A stretch of 64,000 nt of DNA from Bacilli bacterium (GCA_017528315.1 JAFXOW010000059.1:91382-155381); one strand, 5' to 3'. Counted from the first letter of the stretch, positions 2,632 through 64,000 are shown. The notes: generated by a model not told the origin, from the sequence alone. Numbers and translations: made by a program.

Positions 2632-2796
2632 TTTTTCCTCCTCTATATAATTTATTTGTTCTAAGTATTTTGTATTAGAACAAAAGCCTATCTTTTGAAT
2701 TTTTTTACGCTTTTGCATATAATTTTACATGTAAATATTAATGTCAATTTGATTTGAATTTAGATATATGTTATAATTTATATGCAAGGAGAAATT

Positions 2797-3564
2797 ATGA
2801 ATAAAATTTTAAGTAATATATTTAAAGGGCTACTAGTAGCATTGGTAGTAGTAGTTATAGGAGGATTTACTTTTTTAAATATCAAAGGATCTCCTAATAC
2901 ATCGATGATTTTAATTTCGTCAAGTATAGTTAATTCTCTTAATACAGATGAGAAGAAGACTGAAGAAATAGAAGTTTTGGAAGACGAAAATTTAGAAGAA
3001 ACAGAAGCTAAAACGGAAGAAAAAATTGAAGAGACTACTTTAGTTACGGAAGAAGAAAAGGTAGAGGAAGCACCTAAAGAGGAAGTTGTTGAGCATAAAG
3101 AAGAAGTTGTAGAACCAGTTCAAGAAACTAATGCTTCTTCTCAAAGTACTCAAACACCAAGCCCTAATGGAACATATTCACCTAATACAGATGCAGCAAA
3201 TGGAGCTAGTAATAATACATTTCAAGGTTATATGACTGCATATGGTCCAGATTGTTATGGATGTTATGGTTCAGCAACGGCTATGGGTGATTACGTAGGA
3301 GAAGGTAATATTTATTATAATCATCCTACTTATGGAAATATAAGAATTGTTGCTGGAGATAGAAGTATTTTAAATAAAGTTGTAAGAATAACTGGTGTTA
3401 ACTTATACTCTGAACCAGTAATTGCAATTGTTCGTGATACTGGAGGAGATATTGGATTTAATAAACCAAAAGGAATTGTGCTAGATTTATTATTTCCAAG
3501 TGAATATACACCAGAAGCTGCTAATTTTGGAAAACAATGGGTAACTGTTGAAATACTTAATTAA
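2797..3564 (+). CDS. Membrane-anchored 3D-domain (RlpA-like double-psi beta-barrel) cell-wall protein
   Basis: N-terminal TM helix, then an E/K-rich low-complexity linker, then a C-terminal 3D-like segment (MTAYGPDCYGC...IVAGDRSIL...AIVRDTGGDIG). The start at MNKIL is preceded by AGGAGA. Confidence 0.7.
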   Translation: MNKILSNIFKGLLVALVVVVIGGFTFLNIKGSPNTSMILISSSIVNSLNTDEKKTEEIEVLEDENLEETEAKTEEKIEETTLVTEEEKVEEAPKEEVVEHKEEVVEPVQETNASSQSTQTPSPNGTYSPNTDAANGASNNTFQGYMTAYGPDCYGCYGSATAMGDYVGEGNIYYNHPTYGNIRIVAGDRSILNKVVRITGVNLYSEPVIAIVRDTGGDIGFNKPKGIVLDLLFPSEYTPEAANFGKQWVTVEILN

Positions 3565-3832
3565 AATAATTTTGATATTTAGATCTATAATCTAAAAAGA
3601 GATTATAGATTTTTTTTAGTTTTTCTTCTTCTATATAATCTTTAGCTTTTTTAAATACTTTATCATAATTATCACTTAATAAAGTTTTATAATCATTTTT
3701 AATAACATTGTAGATATAATTTATTTCTTTACTATTTAATAAAATATTATTTTTGTTACTAAACAGAATGATATCTTTTATAGTTAATTTATTTATATAA
3801 TTTTCTAAAATAGATAAAAACATATAATTCAC
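3557..3832 (-). CDS. Hypothetical small protein (91 aa)
   Basis: ORF only. Composition is coding-like. It is convergent with the 3D-domain gene and overlaps it by 8 nt. No motif recognised. Confidence 0.4.
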   Translation of the reverse strand: MNYMFLSILENYINKLTIKDIILFSNKNNILLNSKEINYIYNVIKNDYKTLLSDNYDKVFKKAKDYIEEEKLKKIYNLFLDYRSKYQNYFN

Positions 3833-3881
3833 CTAGTTAATATTATTCATAAAAGTTAAAAAAATACAAATAATAAAATAG

Positions 3882-5843
3882 GTGATTAATTTGAGACGAA
3901 AAATTAATTTTTTGACTATTTTAATATATTTATTTTTTTTAATAATAGGTATTAGACTTTTTTATTTACAAATTATAAAACATGATTATTATGAAGAAAA
4001 ATTAAAAGCTATAAATGAAAAAATCATTTATGGTGATAGTAGTCCAAGAGGAAAAATATATGATCGAAATGGTAAAGTAATTGTCGATAATAAATTAGTT
4101 CCAACTATTTATTTTAAAAATAATCAAAAGTTGAATAATAAAGAATTAATTAATTTAGCAAATGATGTAAGTGAACATTTGGAACTTGATTATAGTAAAT
4201 TAACAACATCATATATTAAAGATTTTTATTTAATAGAACATGAAGATGATATATTAAAATTAATTAGTAAAGAAGATATAGAAAAATATAAAAGTCATAA
4301 AATAAGTAGTAGGGATTATTATAATTTAAAAAAAAGTTTAATAAGTGATGATGATATAAGTAAATATAGTGAAGAAGATAAAAAAGTAATTTATTTATAT
4401 TATTTAATGACTAATGGTTATTATTATGATGATAAAATTATTAAAACTAATGCAAGTGATGTGGAATTTGCTTATTTTTCTGAAAGTAACGAAAAGTTAA
4501 ATGGTTTTAATACCAAATATACTTATGAAAGAAATTATATTTATGGAAATAATTTAAAAAGTATTTTAGGAAGTATTGGTCAAATTACTGCTACAGATAA
4601 AGATTATTATTTGAATAAAGGTTATAGTTTAAATGATAAAGTAGGATTATCTTATTTAGAATATATGTATGATGATTATTTAAAAGGAAAGAAAGATATT
4701 TATAAATTAGATGGAGGGAATTTAATAAAAGTTAAAGATGGAGAATGTGGCAATGATTTATATTTAACAATTGATATGGATATTCAAAATATGATTAATG
4801 AAGTATTGGAAACAGAAATAAAAAATGCTAAAGGAAATATAAATACTAAATATTTTGATAAGAGTTATGTAACGATAAGTAATCCAAATAATGGTGATAT
4901 TTTAGCAATATCAGGTAAGGTTTACAATAATGGAAATATTACTGATAATACTCTTGGAGCAGTAATGGACTCAATGGTTTCGGGAAGTGTTGTTAAAGGA
5001 GCAAGTATTTTAGTTGGATATAATGAAGGTAAACTTAAAATAGGTGAATATATGGTTGATGAATGTATGAAATTAAAAGGGACTAAACAAAAGTGTTCCA
5101 TTATTACGATGGGATATGTTAATGATTTAGATGCTATTAGACGAAGTAGTAATATTTATCAATTTAAAATAGCTTTAAGAGTTGCTGGAGTTAATTATAG
5201 TTATGATGGTCCAGCTTATGTTGATAGTAAATCTTTTGAAACTTATCGAAAATATTTAGGTTTATTTGGTTTAGGAGAAAAAACCGGAATAGATTTAGAA
5301 AGAGAATCAACAGGTATTAAAGGAAAATTAGAAAATGCGGGATTACTCATGAATCTTTCGATTGGTCAATATGATAGTTATACTAATATAGAGCTTAATC
5401 AATATATTGCTACTCTTGCTAATGGAAGTAATCGTTATAGTTTACATTTTTTAAAAGAAATAAAAAAGAAGGATGAAGTTGTTAAAACTTATGAACCTGT
5501 TATTTTAAATACTTTAGAATCAATTGATAAAAAATATATTGATCGAGTTAAACTTGGATTAAGACAAGTTATAACTAATGGAACCGGTCGAGGTTATATA
5601 GATGAAATAAAACATGCAAGTGGTAAAACAGGAACCAGTGAAACGTTTGTTGATACAAATGGAGATGGTATTTATGAAACAGAATCTATTTCAACAGCTT
5701 TTGTTTCGTATTTCCCAACTGATAATCCTAAATATGCTATTTCTATCACTTCACCAAATATTAGTTATGTAAATAGTTATAGCAGTTATATTTATCCTTT
5801 TAATAAAATAGTAATTAGAAAAATAACAGATAATTTGAATTAA
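3882..5843 (+). CDS. Class B penicillin-binding protein (transpeptidase, PBP2/SpoVD-like)
   Basis: N-terminal TM anchor and a PBP dimerisation region. The transpeptidase motifs are present in the correct order: SxxK (SVVK), SxN (SSN) and KTGT. Confidence 0.85.
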   Translation: MINLRRKINFLTILIYLFFLIIGIRLFYLQIIKHDYYEEKLKAINEKIIYGDSSPRGKIYDRNGKVIVDNKLVPTIYFKNNQKLNNKELINLANDVSEHLELDYSKLTTSYIKDFYLIEHEDDILKLISKEDIEKYKSHKISSRDYYNLKKSLISDDDISKYSEEDKKVIYLYYLMTNGYYYDDKIIKTNASDVEFAYFSESNEKLNGFNTKYTYERNYIYGNNLKSILGSIGQITATDKDYYLNKGYSLNDKVGLSYLEYMYDDYLKGKKDIYKLDGGNLIKVKDGECGNDLYLTIDMDIQNMINEVLETEIKNAKGNINTKYFDKSYVTISNPNNGDILAISGKVYNNGNITDNTLGAVMDSMVSGSVVKGASILVGYNEGKLKIGEYMVDECMKLKGTKQKCSIITMGYVNDLDAIRRSSNIYQFKIALRVAGVNYSYDGPAYVDSKSFETYRKYLGLFGLGEKTGIDLERESTGIKGKLENAGLLMNLSIGQYDSYTNIELNQYIATLANGSNRYSLHFLKEIKKKDEVVKTYEPVILNTLESIDKKYIDRVKLGLRQVITNGTGRGYIDEIKHASGKTGTSETFVDTNGDGIYETESISTAFVSYFPTDNPKYAISITSPNISYVNSYSSYIYPFNKIVIRKITDNLN

Positions 5844-5849
5844 AAATAA

Positions 5850-6794
5850 TTATTTAGTAATTTTATTAATAAATTTTTCAAAAATATTAATAAATGGATA
5901 AAAAATAATTATCGATAAAAAGTTAAATAAAGTATGGATTAAGGCTATAGAAAGAGAATTTACTTTATAATAAAGAAATTTAAAATTTAAATATTTTGAA
6001 ATATAAAAAATAATTATAAATATAATTGTTCCAATTATATTATAAAATAAATGACTATACGCAACTTTTCGAGCATTTTTACAAGTACCAATACTAGCTA
6101 TTATAGTAGTAATACAGCTTCCTATATTTTCGCCCAAGATAATGGGAATAGCCATATAATAGTTTATTGTACTTTTAATAGAAATTGCTTGTAAAATAGC
6201 AACTGTAGCACTGGAAGATTGAACTAGACAAGTTGTAACTAATCCAATTAAAAGACCTAATAAAGGACTATTTAAGGATTCAATTATATCTTTAAATATT
6301 TTATAGTCCTTTAATAAATTTAAATTAGTTCCAATCATAGATAAGCCAAAGATAAAAAGAGAATATCCAATTAAAAGATTACTTAATCTTTTTTTCTTTT
6401 TAAAATAAAAAATTAAACCTATTAATAAGAGAAAAGGACTATAAGTATTAATATTTAGATATGGTGAAATATTAGTAGTATCAAAACTTAAAAGAGAAGT
6501 AATCCAAGACGTAATACAAGTTCCTAAATTAGCTCCCATCATAATACCAATAGAATTATGAAAAGATAAAACATTTTGATTAACCAGTCCTACGGTAATA
6601 GAAGTAATAATACTTGATGATTGAATTAAAGCGGTTACAATAGTGCCTAAAATAATACCTCTTTTAGCACTTTTGGTATAATGTTCTAAAACTAATTTTA
6701 TTTTACTTTGAATATTGCCAAAACTAGTAGAAAAAAGTTGTAATCCATAAATAAATAAACAAGTACTTAAAATAAAATTTAATAAAATTTTCAT
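5850..6794 (-). CDS. Na+/phosphate cotransporter-family membrane protein (short form without PhoU-like tail)
   Basis: Polytopic membrane protein. It carries the duplicated QSSS motif typical of Na/Pi cotransporter II-related proteins (LIQSSSIITSITVGL and LVQSSSATVAILQAI). Confidence 0.7.
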   Translation of the reverse strand: MKILLNFILSTCLFIYGLQLFSTSFGNIQSKIKLVLEHYTKSAKRGIILGTIVTALIQSSSIITSITVGLVNQNVLSFHNSIGIMMGANLGTCITSWITSLLSFDTTNISPYLNINTYSPFLLLIGLIFYFKKKKRLSNLLIGYSLFIFGLSMIGTNLNLLKDYKIFKDIIESLNSPLLGLLIGLVTTCLVQSSSATVAILQAISIKSTINYYMAIPIILGENIGSCITTIIASIGTCKNARKVAYSHLFYNIIGTIIFIIIFYISKYLNFKFLYYKVNSLSIALIHTLFNFLSIIIFYPFINIFEKFINKITK

Positions 6795-6940
6795 AATATT
6801 AAATATTCTAAAAATTTAAAAAAATGATAAAAATATAAAAGTTTATTAAATTAATAAATTTATTTGTTATTATAAATATAATTTTATAAAAATAATTTAC
6901 TTATTTTGTTTCCCGTGATAAAATTAAAAATGAAAGAAAG

Positions 6941-7906
6941 ATGATAGATATGAAAGAAACAACCGTTGTATTTATGGGAACTCCTGAATTTGCTGTGCCA
7001 ATTTTAGAAGCATTAATAAAAAATACTAAAGTAATTGGAGTTGTTACTCAACCTGATAAAGTTGTTGGAAGAAAGCAAGAGATTACTTTTTCACCAATAA
7101 AAAAGCTCGCCATAGCAAATAATATTAAAGTATTACAACCAGAAAAAATAAGAAATGAATATCAAGATATTTTAAATTTAAAACCAGATATAATTATTAC
7201 CTGTGCTTATGGGCAAATTATACCTAAAGAGATACTTGAATATCCTAAATATAAGTGTATAAATGTTCATGCATCTCTTCTTCCTAAATTAAGAGGTGGT
7301 GCTCCTATTCATCATGCAATAATAGATGGATATAGTAAAACTGGTATTACTATAATGTATATGGATATAGGAATGGATTCTGGAGATATTATTTCTCAAG
7401 AAGAGACTATAATAACGGATCAAGATACAGTTTCAAGCCTTCACGATAGATTAAGTTTAATGGGAAGAGATTTACTTATTAAAACTTTACCTAGTATTAT
7501 AGATGGTACTAACAAAAGAATTAAACAAGATTTGAAAGAAGTAACTTTTGGATATAATATAACAAGAGATGAAGAATTAATAGATTTTTCTAAATTAAAA
7601 AGAGAAATATTTAATCAAATAAGAGGACTAAATTCTTTTCCTGGTGCTTATTTTATCTTAAATAATAAAACCGTTAAAGTATATCAAACTGAAATAAGTG
7701 ATGATATGAGTTATAAGAATGAAGAAAATGGAACAATTGTGAAACTTGATAAAAGTGGTTTATATATAAAAGTAACAGATGGACTTATAATTATTAAAGA
7801 ATTAAAATTTGAAGGTAAAAAAAGAATGAAGATAATTGATTTTATAAACGGAAATAAAGAAAATTTAATTGGAATTATTTGTAATAGGAGTAGTAATGAA
7901 AAATAA
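6941..7906 (+). CDS. fmt: Methionyl-tRNA formyltransferase
   Basis: VVFMGTPEFAVPILEAL N-terminus and HASLLPKLRGGAPIHHAI formyltransferase motif, followed by the C-terminal Fmt domain. An alternative start is at 6950 (MKETT). Confidence 0.9.
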   Translation: MIDMKETTVVFMGTPEFAVPILEALIKNTKVIGVVTQPDKVVGRKQEITFSPIKKLAIANNIKVLQPEKIRNEYQDILNLKPDIIITCAYGQIIPKEILEYPKYKCINVHASLLPKLRGGAPIHHAIIDGYSKTGITIMYMDIGMDSGDIISQEETIITDQDTVSSLHDRLSLMGRDLLIKTLPSIIDGTNKRIKQDLKEVTFGYNITRDEELIDFSKLKREIFNQIRGLNSFPGAYFILNNKTVKVYQTEISDDMSYKNEENGTIVKLDKSGLYIKVTDGLIIIKELKFEGKKRMKIIDFINGNKENLIGIICNRSSNEK

Positions 7907-19293: not shown

Positions 19294-19990
19294 TAAAAAT
19301 ATAGATACAATTTTTTATAATTCTAATCATCAACTAGAAAAGCTTAATAACTATTATTATCTTAATGAAGGTCAATGTGGAGTTATTTATAGAAAAGATA
19401 ATCAAGTTTTAAAAATTTATCGTTTAAAATGTCCATATGCTTATCGAATCAATCGCCAAGTATTTAATATATTAAAAGAATTAAATCTAAATAATATTGT
19501 TAAATTAAATGATTATTATCATTTCTTTAAATCTAGTATTTTATCAATGTTACCAGTTGATGCTTATATAATGGAGTATATAGAACCAAGTAAATCATTA
19601 ATATTAGATAAATCTAAAGATTATATTTTATTTATAATTAAATCTTTAGAAGAAACTAGTTTAAAACTTGCCCAAAATAAAATAGTAATGTATGACAGTC
19701 ATTATTCTAATATTATTTTTACCGATAATAATGCTATTATAATAGACGTAGATTCTTATCAATATAGTTATTTTAAATCAGTTAATAGTATTTATTTACA
19801 TAATAAAAAAGAAGTATTAAAAATGTTTAAAAGTAAAATTATTAATGAATTAAAAGATAAAGATTTAGATATAGATAGAATAAATGATTTATTAAATTTT
19901 GATTTAAGAAAAAGTAGTCTTGTTAGTAATATTAAAAATTTGTGTGATAAAGATACTTTACAAGATAGTTTAATTAATAAAATGAAATAA
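19286..19990 (+). CDS. Protein-kinase-like fold protein (atypical, function unknown)
   Basis: Kinase-like elements occur in order: G-loop-like GQCGVIY, VLKIY (VAIK-like Lys), YDSHYSNIIF (catalytic-loop D..N) and IIIDVDS (DFG-like). It overlaps the PPIase stop by 8 nt. Confidence 0.45.
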
Positions 19991-21310
19991 AAAGCCATAA
20001 TATAACTTTTTATTTTTTTTTAAAATTATTTTTATATGTTTAAGGTGTCTAATTGTAGTAATTAAAATATTAATGCTGGAACTTATAAGAAGAGAATATA
20101 AACCAATTCCTGGAATGAAACTTAAAACTACTAAAAAGATAGTTTTAAAAATAATTCCTATAAAGTTATCATACATCATTAAATTAGAATTATTGGTCGC
20201 TTGTAAGAATGAAGCAAGCGGTGCTTCTATATAGTAAAGTAAGAAAACAAATGATATATTTTTTATATAATCTGAACCATTCGTTGTTTTATAAAGAAAT
20301 ACTAAAAGATAATCTCTAAAGATAAAAATTAATATTGTTGAAATTAAACCAATAATTAGAGATATTGCTAAAGCTTGTTTCAGTTTCTTTTTAGAGTATT
20401 TTATATTTCCTTTTGAATATTCTCTTGAAATAACTGGAAGAAGGGCACTTGAAATCGCTCCTGTAAAGAATCCTGGAAGAAGTAAAATTGGCATAACAAA
20501 AGCATTAATAATACCATATTCAGTTAAGATAAAATAATTACTATAGCCACATCTAGTTAAAATAAAAGTTAAAATAATAGGTTCAAAAAAGTAAGAAATA
20601 GTTCCAATAATTCTTGTTGCAGTAGTTGGAAGGGAAGTATCTAAAACATTTTTAGAACATTTAAAACTTGGAATCAAATCTTTTTTTTCTATTTTAAAAG
20701 ATTTAGGTAAAAAGAATATTAAAACAATACTAGAAAATGATTCTGAAATAACATTTATTAAAATTAAACAAGTAGTAGTAAATATAATACCTTTATATAA
20801 AATATGGGGAAGAATAAATAGCATAAATAAAAGTCTTATAATTTGTTCAGCTAGATTACTTATAACGTGAGGAATCATTTTTTCTTTTCCAAAAAAGAAT
20901 CCTCTTAAAATACTTGATAGAGAATCAAAGGGTAAAACTAAACTAATAGATAAAATAGGAAGATAAGCAGATTCATTTTTTAATAAATTAAAAGCAATAA
21001 ATCGACTTGTAAAAACTAAAAAGATAGTTAAAATTATATTAATAAAAATAGATATTGGTAAAATTGAAAATAATATCTTTTTACTACTATCAGAATTCTC
21101 AGATACAACTTTCGAAATACCGGTTGAAAATCCTAATTGACTAATAGCCATCATTAAAGAAAAAGTTGGCATAATTAACATGTATAAACTAACAACTTCT
21201 AAATTAGAATTTCTAGTCATGATAACTCTAATAAGAATTCCTAATAGTTTAGTTAATAATCCTCCAATAATTAATATAATTGTACTTTTAATAAATAAGT
21301 TCTTTTTCAT
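19970..21310 (-). CDS. spoVB: MOP-superfamily flippase, SpoVB-like (stage V sporulation protein B / MurJ-related)
   Basis: Polytopic protein. Segments recall B. subtilis SpoVB: N-terminal KSTIILIIGGLLTKLLG, SSILRGFFFGKEKM and SLPTTATRIIGTISYFFEPII. It is shorter (446 aa) than SpoVB. Confidence 0.65.
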   Translation of the reverse strand: MKKNLFIKSTIILIIGGLLTKLLGILIRVIMTRNSNLEVVSLYMLIMPTFSLMMAISQLGFSTGISKVVSENSDSSKKILFSILPISIFINIILTIFLVFTSRFIAFNLLKNESAYLPILSISLVLPFDSLSSILRGFFFGKEKMIPHVISNLAEQIIRLLFMLFILPHILYKGIIFTTTCLILINVISESFSSIVLIFFLPKSFKIEKKDLIPSFKCSKNVLDTSLPTTATRIIGTISYFFEPIILTFILTRCGYSNYFILTEYGIINAFVMPILLLPGFFTGAISSALLPVISREYSKGNIKYSKKKLKQALAISLIIGLISTILIFIFRDYLLVFLYKTTNGSDYIKNISFVFLLYYIEAPLASFLQATNNSNLMMYDNFIGIIFKTIFLVVLSFIPGIGLYSLLISSSINILITTIRHLKHIKIILKKNKKLYYGFLFHFIN

Positions 21311-29707: not shown

Positions 29708-29771
29708 CTATTTTTTTGTTCTATTTAATTAATTCAGACATAACATTTAATGAATAGAAAGGTAAGTGTTT

Positions 29772-31247
29772 ATGGATAAGTATGAAATAATTAAAAATAT
29801 TTCTTTAAGATCAGGTGGAGATATATATTTAGGAGTAGTGGGAGCAGTTAGAACTGGTAAAAGTACATTTATAAAGAAAATGGTTGAAACCTTGATTGTT
29901 CCAAATATTCAAGATGAGTATGAGAAAAAAAGGTGTTTAGATGAGATACCTCAAAGTGCTGCTGGAAAGAATGTTATGACAACTGAACCTAAGTTTGTTC
30001 CAAATACAGCTATTTCTATTAATATTGATGATTTTTCTTGTAAGATTCGTTTGATTGATTGTGTTGGTTATATGATTGAAAATGCTAAAGGTGTAGAAGA
30101 TGAGAATGGTCCAAGAATGGTTAAAACTCCATGGTATGATGAAATGATACCATTTAAGGAAGCTGCGGAAGTAGGAACTGAAAAAGTTATTAAGGAACAT
30201 TCAACGATTGGAATAGTAGTTACAACGGATGGTTCAATAGGTGATTTTGAAAGAGATGATTATATTGCTGCTGAAGAAAGGGTAATTACTGAGTTAAAAG
30301 AATTAAATAAGCCATTTATTGTTTTACTTAATTCAACTCATCCAACATTACCAGATACAATAAGAATTGCTAATGATTTAAAAGATAAATATAATATTCC
30401 AGTTATTCCAATTAGTATTGAAACAATGACAGAACGAGAAATGTATGATTTATTAAGAGAAGCCTTATATGAATTTCCAATTTTAGAAGTTAAAGTAAAA
30501 TTACCAGATTGGATAGCTATCTTAAATCCAAGTCATCCTATAAAAAAACTTTATATTGATAAAATAAAAGAAAGTGTTGTTGAAATTGATAAGTTACGTG
30601 ATGTCGAGAAAATTACGGATGGTTTTAAAGAAGTACCAGAAATAGAAAAAGCTTATTTATCAAATGTTGATACCGGAAGTGGTGAAGTTTTAGTAACCCT
30701 TGAAGCACCAGATATTTTATATGAAAAAGTATTACATGAAATAATTGATATTGATGTTTCAAATAAAAAAGAATTACTAAAATTATTTCAAGAATATAGT
30801 ATAGCTAAGAATGAATATGATCAAATCAAATATGCTTTAAAAATGGTTAAACAAACAGGATATGGGGTTGCTACACCAAGTATTAAAGATATGAAATTAA
30901 CTACTCCAGAGATTACGAAGCAAGGAACTCGTTTTGGAGTAAAATTAAAAGCTACAGCTCCTTCAATTCATATGATTAGAGTAGATGTAACATCAACATT
31001 TGAACCAATTATTGGTTCCGAAATACAATCTCGTGAACTTATAAATCATCTAATGAAAGATTATGAAAGTGATCCAGAAAATATATGGAAAAGTGAAATA
31101 TTTGGAAGAAGTTTAGATTCTATTGTTCAAGAAGGAATTCAATCTAAAATAAATATGATGCCAGATAATATTAGATTTAAACTAGCTACTACTTTAACTA
31201 AAATAGTAAACAGAGGAAGTAATAACTTAATTGCTATAGTTTTATAG
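29772..31247 (+). CDS. spoIVA: Stage IV sporulation protein A (spore coat morphogenetic ATPase)
   Basis: MDKYEIIKNISLRSGGDIYLGVVGAVRTGKSTFIKK (Walker A). The length (about 490 aa) and the C-terminal ...NNLIAIVL are characteristic of SpoIVA. Confidence 0.93.
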   Translation: MDKYEIIKNISLRSGGDIYLGVVGAVRTGKSTFIKKMVETLIVPNIQDEYEKKRCLDEIPQSAAGKNVMTTEPKFVPNTAISINIDDFSCKIRLIDCVGYMIENAKGVEDENGPRMVKTPWYDEMIPFKEAAEVGTEKVIKEHSTIGIVVTTDGSIGDFERDDYIAAEERVITELKELNKPFIVLLNSTHPTLPDTIRIANDLKDKYNIPVIPISIETMTEREMYDLLREALYEFPILEVKVKLPDWIAILNPSHPIKKLYIDKIKESVVEIDKLRDVEKITDGFKEVPEIEKAYLSNVDTGSGEVLVTLEAPDILYEKVLHEIIDIDVSNKKELLKLFQEYSIAKNEYDQIKYALKMVKQTGYGVATPSIKDMKLTTPEITKQGTRFGVKLKATAPSIHMIRVDVTSTFEPIIGSEIQSRELINHLMKDYESDPENIWKSEIFGRSLDSIVQEGIQSKINMMPDNIRFKLATTLTKIVNRGSNNLIAIVL

Positions 31248-45211: not shown

Positions 45212-46426
45212 ATGTTTGCTAGTGTTGATCTTGGTAGTCATAGTATAAAGATAATTGTTTGCAGAAAAGTTGATGATAAATATTGTGTTTTAGCATCTAC
45301 TTGTGTAAAATCAATGGGAATTAAACGTGGATTTATTAAAGATAAAGAACAAGCTTTAAATAGTTTAAAAGAAGCTATTAATAATATAGAAAAAGATTTG
45401 GGTATTAAATTACATAAAGTATTACTTAGTTTTCCTTTATATAATTTAAATACAACTATTGAATCTGGAGAAATTGCCGTTTCCAAAGTTGTATCAGGTG
45501 AAGATATTCGAGAAGTTATTAATAAAACAGTTAAAGAAAACATAGATTCTAATTCTGAAATTGTATATTTGGAACCAATTGTCTTTGAAGTAGATGGAGG
45601 TATTCAAGTAGTTGATCCTAAAGGACTTGAGACTAATAATTTAAAAGCTCGACTTGCTGTTTCAACTATTGATAAAAGTATTTTGTATGAATATTTAGAA
45701 CTTTTAAATGAAGCAGAACTTTCAGTAGATGATTTAGTATATGGAATAGTTGGAGATTACATGATAGGTTCTAATCGTGATATTGAGAGAAAATTAGGAG
45801 TTGTTGTCAATATTGGATATTCAAAAACTGAAATAGCTATCATTAATAAAGGAATACTATTAAAAGGAACAATTTTACCAATTGGAAGTCGTAAAATTGA
45901 TAAAGATATTAGTTATGTATATAAGTTAGATAGGGAAACATCTCGCGAATTAAAAGAAAATTTTGCTAATTCAAGTTCTTTATATGCAGATAAAAATGAT
46001 TATTTAGAAGTTACTAATATATCTGGAGAATCTGTAAATATAAATCAATTTGAAATAAGTCAGGTTGTAGAAGCCAGATTAGAAGAATTAATAAAAAGTG
46101 TAAAATTAGAGATAAATAACTTAACAAATAGAGAAATAAGTTATATAATTATAACTGGTGGCATTACCAATATGGCAGGATTTGCCTATCTTTTAGAAAA
46201 TGAATTTGATGAAGAAAAAATAATTTGTAATGTTACACCAATGGGTATAAGAAGTAATATATATTCTACAGGTCTTGGTATAATAGAATGTATAGATAAG
46301 AAAATGAAGTTTAGAGAAATAGATTATAATATGTTTGGTGAAGATGAAATAAAAAAACTAACAGCAAAAGAAAAAGTATGTAGAGATAGTTTAATTAGTA
46401 AACTAGAGGCTTACTTGAAAGATTAA
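45212..46426 (+). CDS. ftsA: Cell division protein FtsA
   Basis: Actin-fold pattern ([39 protein letters not shown]). It lies immediately upstream of ftsZ. Confidence 0.85.
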
Positions 46427-46437
46427 GGAGGAATTAT

Positions 46438-47517
46438 ATGCTAAATGGGTTAGAAATGGATCAAATGGCTAAGATAAAAGTAATTGGTGTTGGTGGTGGT
46501 GGAGGAAATGCCGTTAACCGGATGATTGAAACAGGAGTTAAAGGCGTTGAGTTTATTGTTGCTAATACTGATTATCAAGTTTTATCAAAGTCGAAAGCTG
46601 ATGTAAAAATACAACTTGGCAAACAATTAACAGATGGGCTTGGAGCTGGTGGAAAACCAGAAATAGGACGTGAGTCAGCTGTTGAATCTAAGAAAGAAAT
46701 AGAAGAAGCGTTAAAGGGTGCTGATATGATTTTCATTACCTGTGGAATGGGTGGTGGAACTGGTACAGGAGCAGCATCGGTTATTGCTGAAATTGCTCAA
46801 GGATTAGGTGCTTTAACGGTTGCTATTGTAACCAAACCATTTACATTTGAAGGCAAACGACGTATGGAAAATGCTATGCAAGGTTTATCAGAACTTAAAA
46901 AGCATGTTGATACTTTAATTGTTATCCCAAATGATAGATTAAGAGAAATTATTGATAAGTCAACACCTTTACTTGAAGCCTTTAAAGAAGTTGATAATGT
47001 TTTAAGACGTGGGGTTCAATCAATTTCTGATTTGATTGCCGTTGTAGGACTTGTTAACTTGGATTTTGCTGATGTTAAAGCAGTTATGGAACATAGTGGT
47101 AATGCTATTATTGGTATAGGTATAGGAATGGGTGAAGATAGAGCTATTGAGGCTGCCAAACAAGCCGTATCAAGTCCTCTTCTTGAAACTTCTATTACGG
47201 GAGCAACGGATGCCATTATTAATATAACAGGTGGAGTTAATTTAACTTTATTTGAAGCTGAGCAAGCAGCCGAAGTTGTTCGTAATGCATCTAACAATGA
47301 TATAAATACAATATTCGGTTCCGTTATTAATGAAAATTTAACTGATGAAGTAATTGTTACCGTTATTGCAACTGGATTTGATAAATCAAAAAAAGAAAAA
47401 ACCATTTATGATCAACAAGCGAATAATAAGGAAATAACTATTATGGATGATGACGACGATGACGATGCTGATTCAGAATACGATTTTCCACCATTTTTAA
47501 GAAATAGAAATTTTTAA
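46438..47517 (+). CDS. ftsZ: Cell division GTPase FtsZ
   Basis: [17 protein letters not shown], tubulin signature [16 protein letters not shown], an acidic linker (D-run) and the C-terminal peptide DFPPFLRNR. Confidence 0.96.
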
Positions 47518-60144: not shown

Positions 60145-60189
60145 TGATACTTCTTTTTTTTTGACATAAAGTTAATTGAGGGGTTTAAT

Positions 60190-60864
60190 ATGTTTAAAAA
60201 AATATTTATTATATTAATGAGTATATCTTTAATATTTTCAGACTTTTCTGTTAAAGCATCAGATAATTTACTTTCTAATGCTAAATCTGGGGTACTAGTT
60301 GAAGTATCAACAGGAACGATTATTTTTGAAAAAAATATGAATGAAAGAGTTTCAGTTGCTTCAATGACTAAAATGATGGGAATGATTCTAGTAATGGAAG
60401 CCATAGAAGAAGGTAAACTTCGGCTTGAGGAAAAAGTTAAAGTATCAAAAAATGCAAGTGGTATGGGAGGAAGTCAAATATGGCTTGAAGAAGGTGAAGA
60501 AATGAGTGTTTTGGATTTAATTAAAGGTGTTATGATGGCATCAGCTAATGATGGAATCGTATGTCTTGCAGAAAGAGTAGGGGGAACGGAAGAAAAATTT
60601 GTTTTTATGATGAATGAAAAGGCTAAAATTTTAGGACTAAAAAATACTAATTTTGTAAATCCAACGGGACTCGATGAAGAAAATCATTATTCAAGTGCTT
60701 ATGATATGAGTATTATTGCAAGAGAATTAATTAAACACGAAGATATATTTAACTATACAAGTATTTATGAAGATTATTTAAGAAAAGGTACTCAAAATGA
60801 ATATTGGCTTGTGAATACTAATAAAGTCGTGTTTAAATTTTACAATAACTATTGGTTTATGTAG
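60190..60864 (+). pseudogene. 5' segment of a split D-alanyl-D-alanine carboxypeptidase gene (S11 family, DacB/DacF-like)
   Basis: A signal peptide, SxxK (SMTK) and SxN (SAND) are present. Family similarity runs through YEDYLRK....YWLVNTNK, then ends in unrelated residues and a stop. The KTG box and the C-terminal domain are missing. Confidence 0.8.
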
Positions 60865-60973
60865 AATGTAAATATTAAAGGTTTAGTATTTACATTTTGC
60901 AATAATTTAAAATAAACTGCATAATTTTAGTTTTTACCACCTATACTTAATTAGGAAGTTAGGGGTGGTTGAT

Positions 60974-61078
60974 ATGGTTGAAAAAATTATACCTAGAAAT
61001 GTCCAATTAGAAATTATGAAGTTTTTTTTGAAAACGAGCATACCAAGAATATTAAACTCAAATATCAAATCTATTTAG
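60974..61078 (+). CDS. Small ORF (34 aa) immediately upstream of the recombinase
   Basis: ATG preceded by AGGGGTGG. Peptide MVEKIIPRNVQLEIMKFFLKTSIPRILNSNIKSI. Not in the ORF track because it is too short. Confidence 0.3.
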   Translation: MVEKIIPRNVQLEIMKFFLKTSIPRILNSNIKSI

Positions 61079-61097
61079 TAAATAGAGGAGGATATTT

Positions 61098-62558
61098 ATG
61101 ATTAATAAAACAATAACAGGTATTTATATTCGTGTTTCAACAGAAGATCAGGCAAAAGATGGGTTTTCTATTCATGCTCAAAGAGAAAAACTTACTAAAT
61201 ATGCAGAAGCAAATGATTGGGACATTTTTGATTATTATGTAGATGATGGTATTAGTGGTAAAGATTTAGATGGCAGACCTGAGGTTACGAGATTAATTAA
61301 TGATGTTAAAGAGGGTAAAATTAATAATGTTTTAATATATAAGTTAGATAGATTAACTCGTAGTGTTCGTGATTTAATATATTTAATTGAGTTATTTGAA
61401 AAATATTCTTGCACTTTTAACTCCCAAACTGAAAAAATTGATACCTCAAATGCCGTTGGTAGAATGTTTGTTAAAATAATTGGTATATTTGCTGAATTTG
61501 AAAGAGAAAATTTAGCAGAAAGAGTATCATTTGGTTATGAACAAAAAACGAGAGAAGGGAATTATACTAATACATGTGGAGTTTATGGTTATGATTATTT
61601 AGGTAATAATGTATATGTTGTTAATGAAGAAGAAAAAAATTTGGTAAATAGAATATTTGATTTATATATAGATGGTTTATCTTATTATAAGATAGCAAAA
61701 AAATTAAATAATGAAAATCTTCCTACAAAAAGAGGTGGACATTGGGCAACAGGAACTATTAAATCTATTATTACTAATCCACTTTATATAGGTCAAGTTA
61801 GATATGGAGTGCAACCTAAAAATAAAGATAAATCTTTTTCGGTAGAAGGAAAAAATATTGAAGCAATAGTTGAAGTAGAAAAATGGGAGTCAGCAAATAA
61901 AGCCGTAGCAACTAGACAAAAATTCTGTATGAGAAGATATTCAAGTGATAATTCTTATTATTTTCATATAATTAAATGTGCTAAATGTGGTGGTGGTATT
62001 GGTGCAAGACAACAAAATCAAAAAGGAACAAAGTATATTACTTATAGATGCTATAATGCAAGTCGTGGTTTTTGTGAATGTGGAGGTTTTTCTCATAAAA
62101 TAATGGAAGATACTTTTATGGAATATTTAGATACATTAGGAAATATGAAACCTGATGATAGCATATTTGAAAAAAAGAATAATTTAGCTAATTATCAAAA
62201 ACAAGAAGAACAATTAAAAAATAAAATTGATAAATTATATTTAAAAAAGAAAACAATTAGAAATCAATTTGTTAATGAATTATTAACTATTGAAGAATAT
62301 AGAGAAATGATAGAAGAAATAGATAATCAAATCTCAAAATTAAATGATTCACTTGTTAATATAAATGCTAAAATTGGAGAAAATACAGAAGAATTTTCTT
62401 ATGAGGAAGTTAAAGAATTAATTACAAATATTAAATTAAATTGGGAAAATTTAACAAATAAAGAAAGAAAACATTTTTTAGAACAATTTGTTGATAAAAT
62501 AATGGTTGAAAAAATCAATGATAAAGTAATAATAAAAAATGTAGAATTTAAGAGGTAG
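61098..62558 (+). CDS. Large serine recombinase (SpoIVCA/phage-integrase type)
   Basis: Resolvase catalytic domain GIYIRVSTEDQ...YKLDRLTRS, a recombinase domain, a Cys-rich zinc ribbon (CAKCGG...YRCYN...CEC) and a C-terminal coiled coil. Strong SD AGAGGAGG. Confidence 0.9.
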   Translation: MINKTITGIYIRVSTEDQAKDGFSIHAQREKLTKYAEANDWDIFDYYVDDGISGKDLDGRPEVTRLINDVKEGKINNVLIYKLDRLTRSVRDLIYLIELFEKYSCTFNSQTEKIDTSNAVGRMFVKIIGIFAEFERENLAERVSFGYEQKTREGNYTNTCGVYGYDYLGNNVYVVNEEEKNLVNRIFDLYIDGLSYYKIAKKLNNENLPTKRGGHWATGTIKSIITNPLYIGQVRYGVQPKNKDKSFSVEGKNIEAIVEVEKWESANKAVATRQKFCMRRYSSDNSYYFHIIKCAKCGGGIGARQQNQKGTKYITYRCYNASRGFCECGGFSHKIMEDTFMEYLDTLGNMKPDDSIFEKKNNLANYQKQEEQLKNKIDKLYLKKKTIRNQFVNELLTIEEYREMIEEIDNQISKLNDSLVNINAKIGENTEEFSYEEVKELITNIKLNWENLTNKERKHFLEQFVDKIMVEKINDKVIIKNVEFKR

Positions 62559-62561
62559 TTT

Positions 62562-62756
62562 ATGAATGAAAAATTAATAAAAGTATATGATTTAGTTATA
62601 AATAATGATAATTTAGTTATAACTTTAATAAAGAAAAATAGTTATTATATTTTAGAAAAATGTATTATTAATAGTAATGTTATAAATTTAATTTATCAAA
62701 AGAAATTTAAAAATTATGAAAAAGCATTATGTCAATTTAAAAAATTAATGACATAG
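62562..62756 (+). CDS. Hypothetical small protein (64 aa) coupled to the recombinase gene
   Basis: It starts 4 nt after the recombinase stop, with SD AAGAGGT. No motif recognised. Confidence 0.4.
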   Translation: MNEKLIKVYDLVINNDNLVITLIKKNSYYILEKCIINSNVINLIYQKKFKNYEKALCQFKKLMT

Positions 62757-62859
62757 TGCTTTTTATATTACAATTTGATTTTTATATTTGTAAAAAGTTG
62801 TAGAAATTCTTTATAAAACCTTAAAAGTATGGTATTATTTAATTATGGTAGAGGTTAGT

Positions 62860-63081
62860 ATGATTGATAGAATAAAAGATATATTACAAACTAATAATAG
62901 TGTAGAATTTAGGATATATGGTTTAAATTATATTATTGAAAATAAAAATACAGATTATATCATTTATCCTAAAAATGATATTGATAGGGAAAAAAGTTAT
63001 AAAAGTATAGATGAATTATTTAAAAAGTATGAAATATATAATGAGAGTTTAAAAGATAATGAGAAAAAAATTCAAATTTAA
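62860..63081 (+). CDS. Hypothetical small protein (73 aa)
   Basis: The start at MIDRIK follows GAGGT. No motif recognised. Confidence 0.4.
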   Translation: MIDRIKDILQTNNSVEFRIYGLNYIIENKNTDYIIYPKNDIDREKSYKSIDELFKKYEIYNESLKDNEKKIQI

Positions 63082-63142
63082 ATATTGTATCTATTGTTGT
63101 ATGTAAGAATTTTAAAAGAAAGTTTGTAATTAGGAGTCTAAT

Positions 63143-63682
63143 GTGGGAAAGAAATTAAAAAAATATGTTGTTGTATCAATAATTAAAACTATTATGCTTT
63201 ATACTATTATTACACTAATTTTAACTATAATTGGTATTTGTCTTATTCCAGATATTGTTTCATTATTCTTTTTTGGACTAGACATCATTTGTATAATAAT
63301 GTTAATGTATAAAATATATAATTATATATTGAACATAAAGAATATCAAATTAAATGACTTTAAAAAAATAGAAAAAGAGCTTTTGAATCCTATTTTAATT
63401 AAACCATTTAATTATATTTTAACTGACACATACATCATTAATTTGAAAAATAGTCATTTATTTAAATACGAAGATATTGAAACTATGTATAAGAAAGTTG
63501 GATTTAGTTTAAGAACTAAGCATTTACATTTAGGCAAATATTTATGTATTATCACTAAAGATAAGAAAAAAGATAAATTTTTTATAGGTTATGTTGGAAA
63601 TATTTCAAATTCATTTTATGATTTTTCAAATATAATAATGAAGAAAAATATATGGGTTAATTTTAGTAAAGATGGGAAGTAA
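63143..63682 (+). CDS. Hypothetical 2-TM membrane protein (179 aa), paralog A
   Basis: GTG start after AGGAG. Two TM helices, then a soluble C-terminal domain. Its architecture and motifs are shared with the next ORF. Confidence 0.5.
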   Translation: MGKKLKKYVVVSIIKTIMLYTIITLILTIIGICLIPDIVSLFFFGLDIICIIMLMYKIYNYILNIKNIKLNDFKKIEKELLNPILIKPFNYILTDTYIINLKNSHLFKYEDIETMYKKVGFSLRTKHLHLGKYLCIITKDKKKDKFFIGYVGNISNSFYDFSNIIMKKNIWVNFSKDGK

Positions 63683-63688
63683 TAGTTT

Positions 63689-64000
63689 ATGAATTTTTCG
63701 TTTAGTAATTATTTAAAAAAATTTATAATAAAAAATTGTATTATTATAATTGTTTGGATATTATTTTTTACTTTTTTTATAAAAAAGGATATATCGAGTT
63801 TAACAATATTGTTAATCGGAATTATCTTGATGATTTATAGTCTAGTAAAGGGAATTTATCAAATAAAAAATTTACAAAACAAAAAAATAATAGAAAAAGA
63901 ATTAAATAATTGTTTATTTAATATAGGTGAAGTTTATTTTACTGATAAGTATATATTTAATTTAGATACTTTATCAAAGGTATATTATGAAGATATTTTA
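63689..64000 (+). CDS. Hypothetical 2-TM membrane protein, paralog B (3'-partial at window end)
   Basis: ATG 63689. The frame is open for 104 codons to the window end. Two TM helices, then IKNLQNKKIIEKELNNCLFNIGEVYFTDKYIFNLDTLSKVYYEDI, which parallels IKNIKLNDFKKIEKELLNPILIKPFNYILTDTYIINLKNSHLFKYEDI in paralog A. Confidence 0.5.
   Translation, partial: MNFSFSNYLKKFIIKNCIIIIVWILFFTFFIKKDISSLTILLIGIILMIYSLVKGIYQIKNLQNKKIIEKELNNCLFNIGEVYFTDKYIFNLDTLSKVYYEDIL

Follow-up and report, generated by a model that had tools for sequence, protein, structure and literature searches.

The 64,000-nt stretch of Bacilli bacterium DNA analysed here (GCA_017528315.1 JAFXOW010000059.1:91382-155381; hereafter the window) runs near its 3' end into a D,D-carboxypeptidase gene of the S11 family, dac, which is not intact but split, its KTG motif and PBP5_C domain lying on a separate 3' fragment. 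The window very probably holds the left attachment site (attL) and the left 3.2 kb of a genomic island moved by a large serine recombinase (LSR), with the chromosomal attachment site (attB) inside dac at the WLVNTNK/L codons (the slash marking the cut), and dac can be classed as a new target of gene-splitting LSR elements, a kind already known. Integration of the LSR type has split dac into a 5' half (signal peptide, SxxK, SxN) and a 3' half (KTG, PBP5_C) read in the same direction, and precise recombination of attL with the right junction (attR) would restore an intact frame of 385 aa. With the element integrated, the gene is presumably off, since neither half could by itself give a secreted carboxypeptidase that is active, and its restoration would call for the LSR together with a directionality factor, for which a 34-aa micro-ORF (open reading frame) and a 64-aa ORF are the candidates. 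The window was annotated by Pfam searches, and PHROGs, NCBIfam and PADLOC served as further profile sets.

The two halves of dac

The features at the split are the following.

60190-60864, + strand: truncated dac ORF, 224 aa, Pfam Peptidase_S11 (PF00768)
60190-60825, + strand: host-derived 5' part of dac, codons 1-212; alignment with intact relatives ends WLVNTNK
60810-60825, + strand: attL core GTGAATACTAATAAA (16 bp), shared with the attR core GTGAATACAAATAAA
60826-60864, + strand: element-derived tail and stop of the truncated ORF (VVFKFYNNYWFM, then stop), the right arm of the attachment site of the excised circle (attP); the same tail is found past the junction in many host lineages
L059 10001-10546, same orientation as the 5' half: dac 3' fragment, GLKTG, PF07943

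The first-pass annotation, made from the window alone, had described a truncated S11 ORF with SMTK and SAND motifs that runs into a foreign tail and lacks both the KTG box and the C-terminal domain, and this description was borne out. The ORF has a signal-peptide-like N-terminus, SMTK (SxxK) and SAND (SxN), and was matched by Peptidase_S11 (E 5e-60) over profile positions 10-199 of 239 only. Compared with intact relatives of 385-387 aa, dac homology stops exactly past WLVNTNK, at codon 212 (base 60825); the final 12 residues (VVFKFYNNYWFM) bear no relation to dac, and the ORF falls short by about 173 residues, the KTG motif and the PBP5_C domain among them. The missing 3' segment, suggested to lie further on in the same orientation, was retrieved by a search with the C-terminal half of P0002, the closest intact protein, which returned many fragments of 178-181 aa starting at the junction. 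P0122 (181 aa; Peptidase_S11 and PBP5_C) is the 3' fragment of the window lineage; it co-occurs with the window 5' half or LSR in ERZ27256869, ERZ28018792, ERZ28019130 and SRR31077520, and P0122 and the 5' half are each 88% identical to the matching parts of P0002. It is also encoded on the 167-kb scaffold L059, in the orientation of the 5' half and with host genes 3' of it. Downstream synteny with L013, sought to connect the two halves, was not found, and their link in the window lineage rests on the related locus L065 and on the co-occurrence in samples. Both halves lie on single contigs in related species, 3.2-6.3 kb apart.

The gene looks single-copy and is split in all of the approximately 10 contigs of the window species, which come from several studies, the same junction being present in at least 10 independent assemblies of that species. 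An assembly artefact was considered and ruled out, since the junction recurs across dozens of independent assemblies.

Junctions and attachment sites

At attL, ...tggctt is followed by GTGAATACTAATAAA and, past the cut, by gtcgtgttt, and at attR, ...ttgcaaaat is followed by GTGAATACAAATAAA and then by ctaatcaaa. The cores differ at one position (host side T, element side A) and, because the same mismatch occurs in the window lineage and in L065, the crossover would fall within AATAAA (60820-60825); the element begins at 60826. The open frame and common core looked for on in silico joining were both obtained: the host arms read WLVNTNK/LIKTYSGADGLKTG, in frame as in intact genes, the rejoined reading frame (attL x attR) is intact at 385 aa, and the 16-bp core is common to both junctions. 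The in-frame join WLVNTNK/LIKTY was obtained in three lineages, L065, L059 and L068. The joined host arms constitute a host-type attB, matching the empty site in 16 intact relatives.

Recombinase and left end of the element

Between the truncated dac and the cargo, the left end carries the following features.

60860-60901, no strand assigned: inverted repeat, 20-nt arms, 85% complementary, from a repeat search; it lies inside the 1.87-kb stretch with 97.6% identity to L065
60974-61078, + strand: micro-ORF, 34 aa (MVEKIIPRNVQLEIMKFFLKTSIPRILNSNIKSI), conserved, 5' of the LSR
61098-62558, + strand: LSR (integrase), 486 aa, Resolvase E 1e-41, Recombinase E 6e-23, Zn_ribbon_recom E 2e-6
62562-62756, + strand: 64-aa ORF from ORF calling, starting 4 bp past the LSR stop

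The 486-aa LSR gene placed beside the 5' fragment in the first-pass annotation was confirmed by matches to all three LSR domains, PF00239 at residues 9-155 (motif YIRVSTEDQ), PF07508 at 177-273 and PF13408 at 291-344, with a long helical tail C-terminal to the zinc ribbon. The gene starts 233 bp past the truncated dac stop and is identical in 9 contigs; its product is 30-36% identical to serine integrases of Bacillales phages, and its best NCBIfam matches are CcrB, CcrC and XisF, all under their cut-offs. The inverted repeat may be an operator or attenuator. The micro-ORF is a candidate directionality factor or regulator, its core (L/I)EIMKFF(L/M)xTS(I/V)P(R/K)IL being kept in subfamilies with LSRs only 54-70% identical. 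Micro-ORFs of 34-47 aa were found at the equivalent site in L068, L158, L162, L163, L176, L177, L183, L186, L191 and L192; the pattern was not found in the 485-aa LSR subfamily, and the micro-ORF had no match in Pfam or NCBIfam. The 64-aa ORF, within which the region conserved between the window and L065 terminates, is a second candidate directionality factor and had no match in Pfam, PHROGs or NCBIfam.

Complete elements, cargo and right end

Several related loci carry the element whole, on one contig each, or show its cargo.

L065, about 5.9 kb, one contig: dac 5' half, LSR, SpoU methylase, Flg_new protein, remnant, dac 3' half
L068, about 6.3 kb, one contig: dac 5' half, micro-ORF, LSR, SLFN_AlbA_2/HATPase_c_4 protein, 849-aa protein, dac 3' half
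L163, about 3.2 kb, one contig: dac 5' half, micro-ORF, LSR, one 459-aa protein, dac 3' half
L151, cargo: replication-initiator-like protein, repressor, MazF

The complete copies have variable cargo between conserved ends, with the micro-ORF and LSR on one side and an ATPase gene and the attP left arm on the other; the 459-aa protein of L163, judged by eye, looks SLFN/AlbA_2-like. No capsid, tail, terminase or lysis genes were seen in L065, L068 or L163, L151 likewise has no phage structural genes, the cargo of L065 and L068 had non-phage Pfam matches or none, and none of the 10 cargo ORFs scanned against PHROGs matched a structural family. By their gene content, the complete elements are small integrative islands, not prophages. 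No relaxase, coupling protein or type IV secretion genes were seen in the approximately 17 kb of element available.

In the window lineage, the right end was read from L059, where a methylase/SNF2 helicase, a 180-aa ORF, a sigma-70-family protein and an AAA_14/DUF4143 ATPase lie 5' of P0122.

L059 149-7102: giant methylase/SNF2 helicase, about 2450 aa, an N6-adenine methylase-like region (...NIPFG...) fused to a SNF2/ResIII helicase
L059 7983-8519: sigma-70-family protein, 178 aa, passing only the generic sigma70-ECF superfamily model

The C-terminal two-thirds of the giant helicase are about 46% identical to plasmid proteins of C. botulinum and C. perfringens and to proteins encoded on unannotated human-faecal contigs labelled phage. 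The ATPase matches the PADLOC defence candidate PDC-S01 (E 1e-140; tested against PADLOC only). The best NCBIfam matches of the 178-aa sigma-70-family protein were SigK (E 5e-26) and SigE (8e-24), both far under their cut-offs.

Recurrence, spread and decay

Relatives with an uninterrupted dac, which the first-pass annotation had named as the comparison to make, do exist: 79 of the 120 closest dac homologues are intact, and the other 41 are cut at the same codon, with at least six different element-encoded tails past the cut. A junction scan of GTDB species genomes gave 35 matches (about 10 by chance), 24 of them with the dac 5' half to the left, and in 15 an LSR 54-86% identical to that of the window lies about 300 bp to the right. 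Seven further junctions were found in metagenome contigs, in hosts with a much more divergent dac. Compared with L065, the window lineage shows 97.6% identity in the LSR module (1872 bp) and 97.9% at the right end (378 bp), with only 80-82% identity in the host flanks; an LSR module that is about 97% identical beside flanks at about 80% points to recent movement of the element between species. For many split alleles, an intact counterpart exists at 98-100% protein identity, so that occupancy varies within species. Unlike what the first-pass annotation expected, the element belongs to a large, horizontally moving family with variable cargo; this family moves between species and always uses this one dac site.

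The split halves deviate at conserved columns about as intact genes do (5' half, 15.3% in split against 15.6% in intact; 3' half, 20.5% against 19.2%), and internal stops were found in 0 of 41 5' halves and 0 of 11 3' halves. Relaxed selection was thus sought in the split halves and not found, and the insertions may be young. Decay was seen at a few loci. In L149 and L154, attL is present (junctions at 2042 and 4556, + orientation) and the LSR and dac 3' half are gone; in L154, a cation ATPase gene fragment lies within about 150 bp of the junction, so that LSR, cargo and dac 3' half have been lost by deletion, together with part of the next host gene. L187 and L190 have a junction without an adjacent LSR. 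A different arrangement was found in L157 (= L014).

L157 2688-5822: intact dac at 2688-3851, a 1.45-kb spacer and a second dac 3' copy at 5301-5822

The displaced 3' copy is 99% identical over 470 nt to the copy in the intact gene and carries the changes Q>K, D>N, KTG>KNG and R>I; the locus has the look of a gene repaired or re-created next to a remnant of the element, while the displaced copy decays. Within the spacer are two ORFs and a pair of tandem repeats, each of about 60 nt (4560-4670), followed by an L068-type attP left arm. A ToxIN-type system was considered for this cargo, but neither Pfam nor PADLOC supported it.

A second insertion hot spot in dac was observed in L186, L192, L180, L149/L154 and L152.

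L186 3157-4848, + strand: second-site LSR ORF, with the dac fragment from about 4805

The second-site LSR (557-563 aa; ...YARVSTDHEEQLNSLENQ...) is 28-31% identical to the window LSR and reads into dac at the SxN motif, and dac homology resumes at ..D(A/G)VVA... at these loci. With this second LSR at SxN in addition to the first junction, dac is cut twice, into three pieces, in these genomes.

Host and sporulation genes

The host belongs to a clade of uncultured gut "Bacilli/Tenericutes" metagenome-assembled genomes (MAGs) sourced from ruminants, rabbits, humans and chickens. G+C content is about 25% across the whole genome and, being uniform, gives no compositional marker for the element. In databases, the host genome is labelled Bacilli, Tenericutes or Mycoplasmatota. 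The related orders RF39, RFN20 and ML615J-28 have been predicted to be a mixture of species that sporulate and others that do not (PMC10868615).

1629-2718, - strand: cotJB and cotJC-type Mn catalase, from profile matches
19970-21310, - strand: SpoVB-like flippase, from profile matches
29766-31247, + strand: SpoIVA, full-length, TIGR02836 equivalog, 691 bits against a cut-off of 460

On this gene content the host is predicted to be an endospore former, in keeping with the first-pass supposition of a sporulating host, for which the SpoIVA equivalog and CotJB/CotJC speak. SpoIVA is 84-88% conserved across MAGs with an intact dac and was also found in four MAGs carrying a split one. A spoIIGA-sigE(-sigG) cluster, sought in the window 3' of ftsA-ftsZ (45212-47517), was not found.

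The carboxypeptidase, called DacB/DacF-like in the first-pass annotation, could be placed with neither of the two. No equivalog matched, the best NCBIfam model was streptococcal penicillin-binding protein 3 (PBP3), far under its cut-off, and B. subtilis DacB was the fourth-best PDB match; neither spmAB nor spoIIA, which were sought, was found beside intact dac genes.

60145-60189, + strand: upstream region of dac, hairpin GAAGTA-gtga-TACTTC with T-run, then the CATAAAGT box at 60165-60172

The hairpin and T-run are likely the terminator of the rhomboid gene. Hairpin, T-run and a CATAA(A/T)nT box precede the dac start in 16 of 16 lineages (CATAAAnT in 15 of 16), and an ATA-N15-CATAAAnT box is conserved upstream of dac across the 16 lineages compared, in which CATAAAnT could serve as a sigmaE-type -10 element. 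A motif of the CATAAAnT type was sought upstream of spoIVA, cotJ and spoVB and was absent there; the sigmaE-like motif fits only dac and the window-type LSR and is absent 5' of the LSR in other element subfamilies.

Reversibility of the split and its possible relation to sporulation

Some observations weigh against a reversible LSR island at this site. The excised circle (attP) was sought in IMG/VR and in metagenome contigs and none was found, and a wider search with the attP right arm returned attL only, with attP in 0 of 7 metagenome junctions. In the window lineage, the element ends sit on different, non-overlapping contigs and the middle is not assembled, so that the element there is at least about 17 kb. 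An intact dac allele of at least 90% identity for the window species was not present in the protein database, and reversibility therefore rests on the in silico joining and on relatives. In addition, the losses in L149/L154 and the loss of KTG in L157 imply that the split is terminal in at least some lineages.

The first-pass annotation had named a plain prophage or ICE insertion that killed the gene as the alternative. The 30-36% identity of the LSR to integrases of Anoxybacillus, Geobacillus, Aeribacillus and Paenibacillus phages, the match of one small ORF to a PHROG family without functional annotation and the giant-helicase homologues encoded by human-faecal 'Bacteriophage sp.' contigs are compatible with a prophage in dac, whether intact or defective, but the complete elements of 3.2-6.3 kb carry no phage genes (capsid, tail, terminase or lysis), the 10 scanned cargo ORFs hit no PHROG structural family, the attP pattern is absent from IMG/VR and the giant methylase-helicase resembles clostridial plasmid proteins, which together make a prophage very improbable. 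The remaining question concerns what the island does to its host gene. In a plain insertional knock-out, the element would occupy a tolerated conserved site, dac would be off effectively permanently, with occasional excision or transfer only, the halves would be young pseudogenes bound to decay, and excision would serve nothing but the transfer of the element itself. The low-molecular-weight penicillin-binding proteins of B. subtilis, DacB included, are dispensable for viability, and a loss of dac might be tolerated likewise. The recent horizontal spread of the element, its varying presence among near-identical host alleles, the decayed L149/L154, the junctions of L187 and L190 without an LSR beside them, the intact dac next to an element remnant and a decaying 3' copy in L157, and the second LSR family that also breaks dac, at SxN, all fit such a knock-out. 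On the other side stand the high conservation of the gene in the clade, with about 34% of sampled lineages split without excess substitutions or stops, and the split in every contig of the window species across several studies. Moreover, the same codon is targeted even by LSRs that have diverged to 54% identity, which indicates a long stable association and not accidental insertions. The knock-out falls just short of an even chance.

In developmental excision, the LSR and a directionality factor would cut the element out in the terminally differentiating mother cell, dac would be restored for remodelling of the spore cortex, and the forespore would keep the element. The sporulation genes of the host (SpoIVA, CotJB/CotJC and the SpoVB-like flippase, with SpoIVA in split-dac MAGs too) are consistent with this, as is the layout, with the LSR directly 3' of the 5' fragment and reading the same way, as for spoIVCA and yin (PMC10747680); gin is a precedent for a gene-splitting element that is not a prophage (PMC5595907). 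Conservation of the split halves matches that of intact genes and internal stops are absent from them, and the displaced L157 copy, by contrast, has lost its KTG motif. A dac that is strongly conserved in reduced genomes and yet split in about one-third of lineages is more easily explained by conditional restoration, and the splitting of all of the approximately 10 contigs of the window species and the ATA-N15-CATAAAnT box 5' of dac in 16 of 16 lineages point the same way. Nevertheless, dac could be assigned to neither DacB nor DacF (NCBIfam, PDB), and the sporulation D,D-carboxypeptidases of C. difficile are forespore genes under sigmaF or sigmaG (PMC3789822); excision in the mother cell would be no help to such a gene. 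The promoter-like motif is missing 5' of spoIVA, cotJ and spoVB and of the LSR in other subfamilies. The near-identical element ends across hosts about 80% identical reflect active spread, and the intact halves may therefore simply be young; L149/L154 show that dac can be lost, and attP was seen in 0 of 7 metagenome junctions. Developmental excision is, on balance, a tentative possibility, and a mobile-element insertion that switches dac off is at least as likely. A bolder form of the idea, which we consider unlikely, would make dac the seventh target of sporulation-timed rearrangement and the first such gene from the uncultured, Mycoplasmatota-related gut Bacilli with reduced genomes, with both the non-phage LSR islands and the second, SxN-directed LSR family excised in the mother cell, a cortex-remodelling carboxypeptidase rebuilt, and the 34-aa LEIMKFFL peptide acting as the directionality factor.

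Comparison with known systems

The sporulation genes given as interrupted in the papers found by full-text search are sigK, spsM, spoVFB, spoVR, gerE and yabG. No carboxypeptidase target was found in those papers, which agrees with the remark of the first-pass annotation that dac is not among the classic split genes. The closest parallel is gin, which interrupts gerE in Bacillus cereus ATCC 10987 (PMC5595907). Like the dac element, gin is not a phage, splits a reading frame, carries serine recombinase genes and has cargo that includes restriction or defence-type genes, and in both, short shared cores flank the gene segments and precise excision restores the gene (for dac, in silico). The two differ in that excision during sporulation and the directionality factor GirX were shown by experiment for gin and the dac element is known from sequence alone, in the target (gerE against dac), in the recombination genes (three recombinases against one and a conserved micro-ORF) and in that the dac family spans many uncultured species, with clear horizontal spread.

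In skin (sigK, SpoIVCA) and SPbeta (spsM, SprA/SprB) of B. subtilis and yin (yabG) of Clostridium botulinum (PMC4191935, PMC5499854, PMC10747680), the LSR lies just 3' of the 5' fragment, as here, the halves have the same orientation and the host is an endospore former (for dac, as predicted from genes). Their excision needs a small directionality factor, for which the dac element has candidates only. In contrast to the complete dac elements, which are without phage genes and whose target has a putative sporulation role only, they are prophages or remnants in proven mother-cell genes. Among site-specific integrative islands and integrative mobilizable elements with large serine integrases, SCCmec (CcrAB) and the Tn5397/Tn4451-type elements of Bacillota share with the dac element a single LSR, a single chromosomal attB, variable cargo between conserved ends and interspecies transfer. 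The dac attB differs from theirs in lying in the middle of a gene for a conserved enzyme and not at a gene end, the gene being inactivated without a replacement segment, and the available parts of the dac element showed neither relaxase nor transfer genes.

If excision proves to be tied to sporulation, the skin/SPbeta paradigm would gain a new target class, a peptidoglycan-remodelling enzyme, and would reach non-phage elements and a large clade of uncultured gut bacteria in which the capacity to sporulate is debated. Regardless of any such link, the family offers widespread serine integrases whose natural attB is precisely known, together with candidate directionality factors, and is of interest for the integrase toolkit. 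The junctions also pose an annotation problem, as "truncated" carboxypeptidase genes in many MAGs are element junctions and not gene loss, and their misannotation bears on the cell-wall and sporulation phenotypes that are predicted from gene content.

Cargo in the window, contig ends and a dac-like remnant

62845-64000, + strand: start of the variable cargo; the element continues past the window end
62845-63081, + strand: 78-aa ORF, matching phrog_3711, a family without functional annotation
63143-63682, + strand: membrane protein, 179 aa, from ORF calling
from 63689, + strand: membrane protein, 184 aa, start only, from ORF calling

The foreign-looking small ORFs 3' of the LSR, noted in the first-pass annotation together with a window that ends inside the element, had no match in Pfam and one match only in PHROGs, and in ENA the window contig runs about 5.6 kb further, all of it element DNA, before it ends. 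Assemblies from many samples end inside or at the edge of the element: the ends concerned are window 64000, the end of L001, the end of L009 (10 bp past the dac 5' stop) and the start of L059, and the contigs of L150 and L155 end 1.9-3.5 kb past the junction. The overlap of host contig and element contig at the junction region of ERZ27256869 is exactly k = 141. The contig breaks and this overlap suggest several variants or repeats in the assembly graph and are not clean evidence of excision.

L065 also contains, at 6389-7024 within the element, an ORF of 211 aa whose first approximately 170 residues form the N-terminus of a different and divergent S11 carboxypeptidase with STTK and SGND motifs; this part has 39% identity to the host dac and is fused to the last codons of AAA_14/DUF4143. 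The ORF may be the scar of a deletion, a hint that a dac-like gene of their own was carried by some of the element's relatives.

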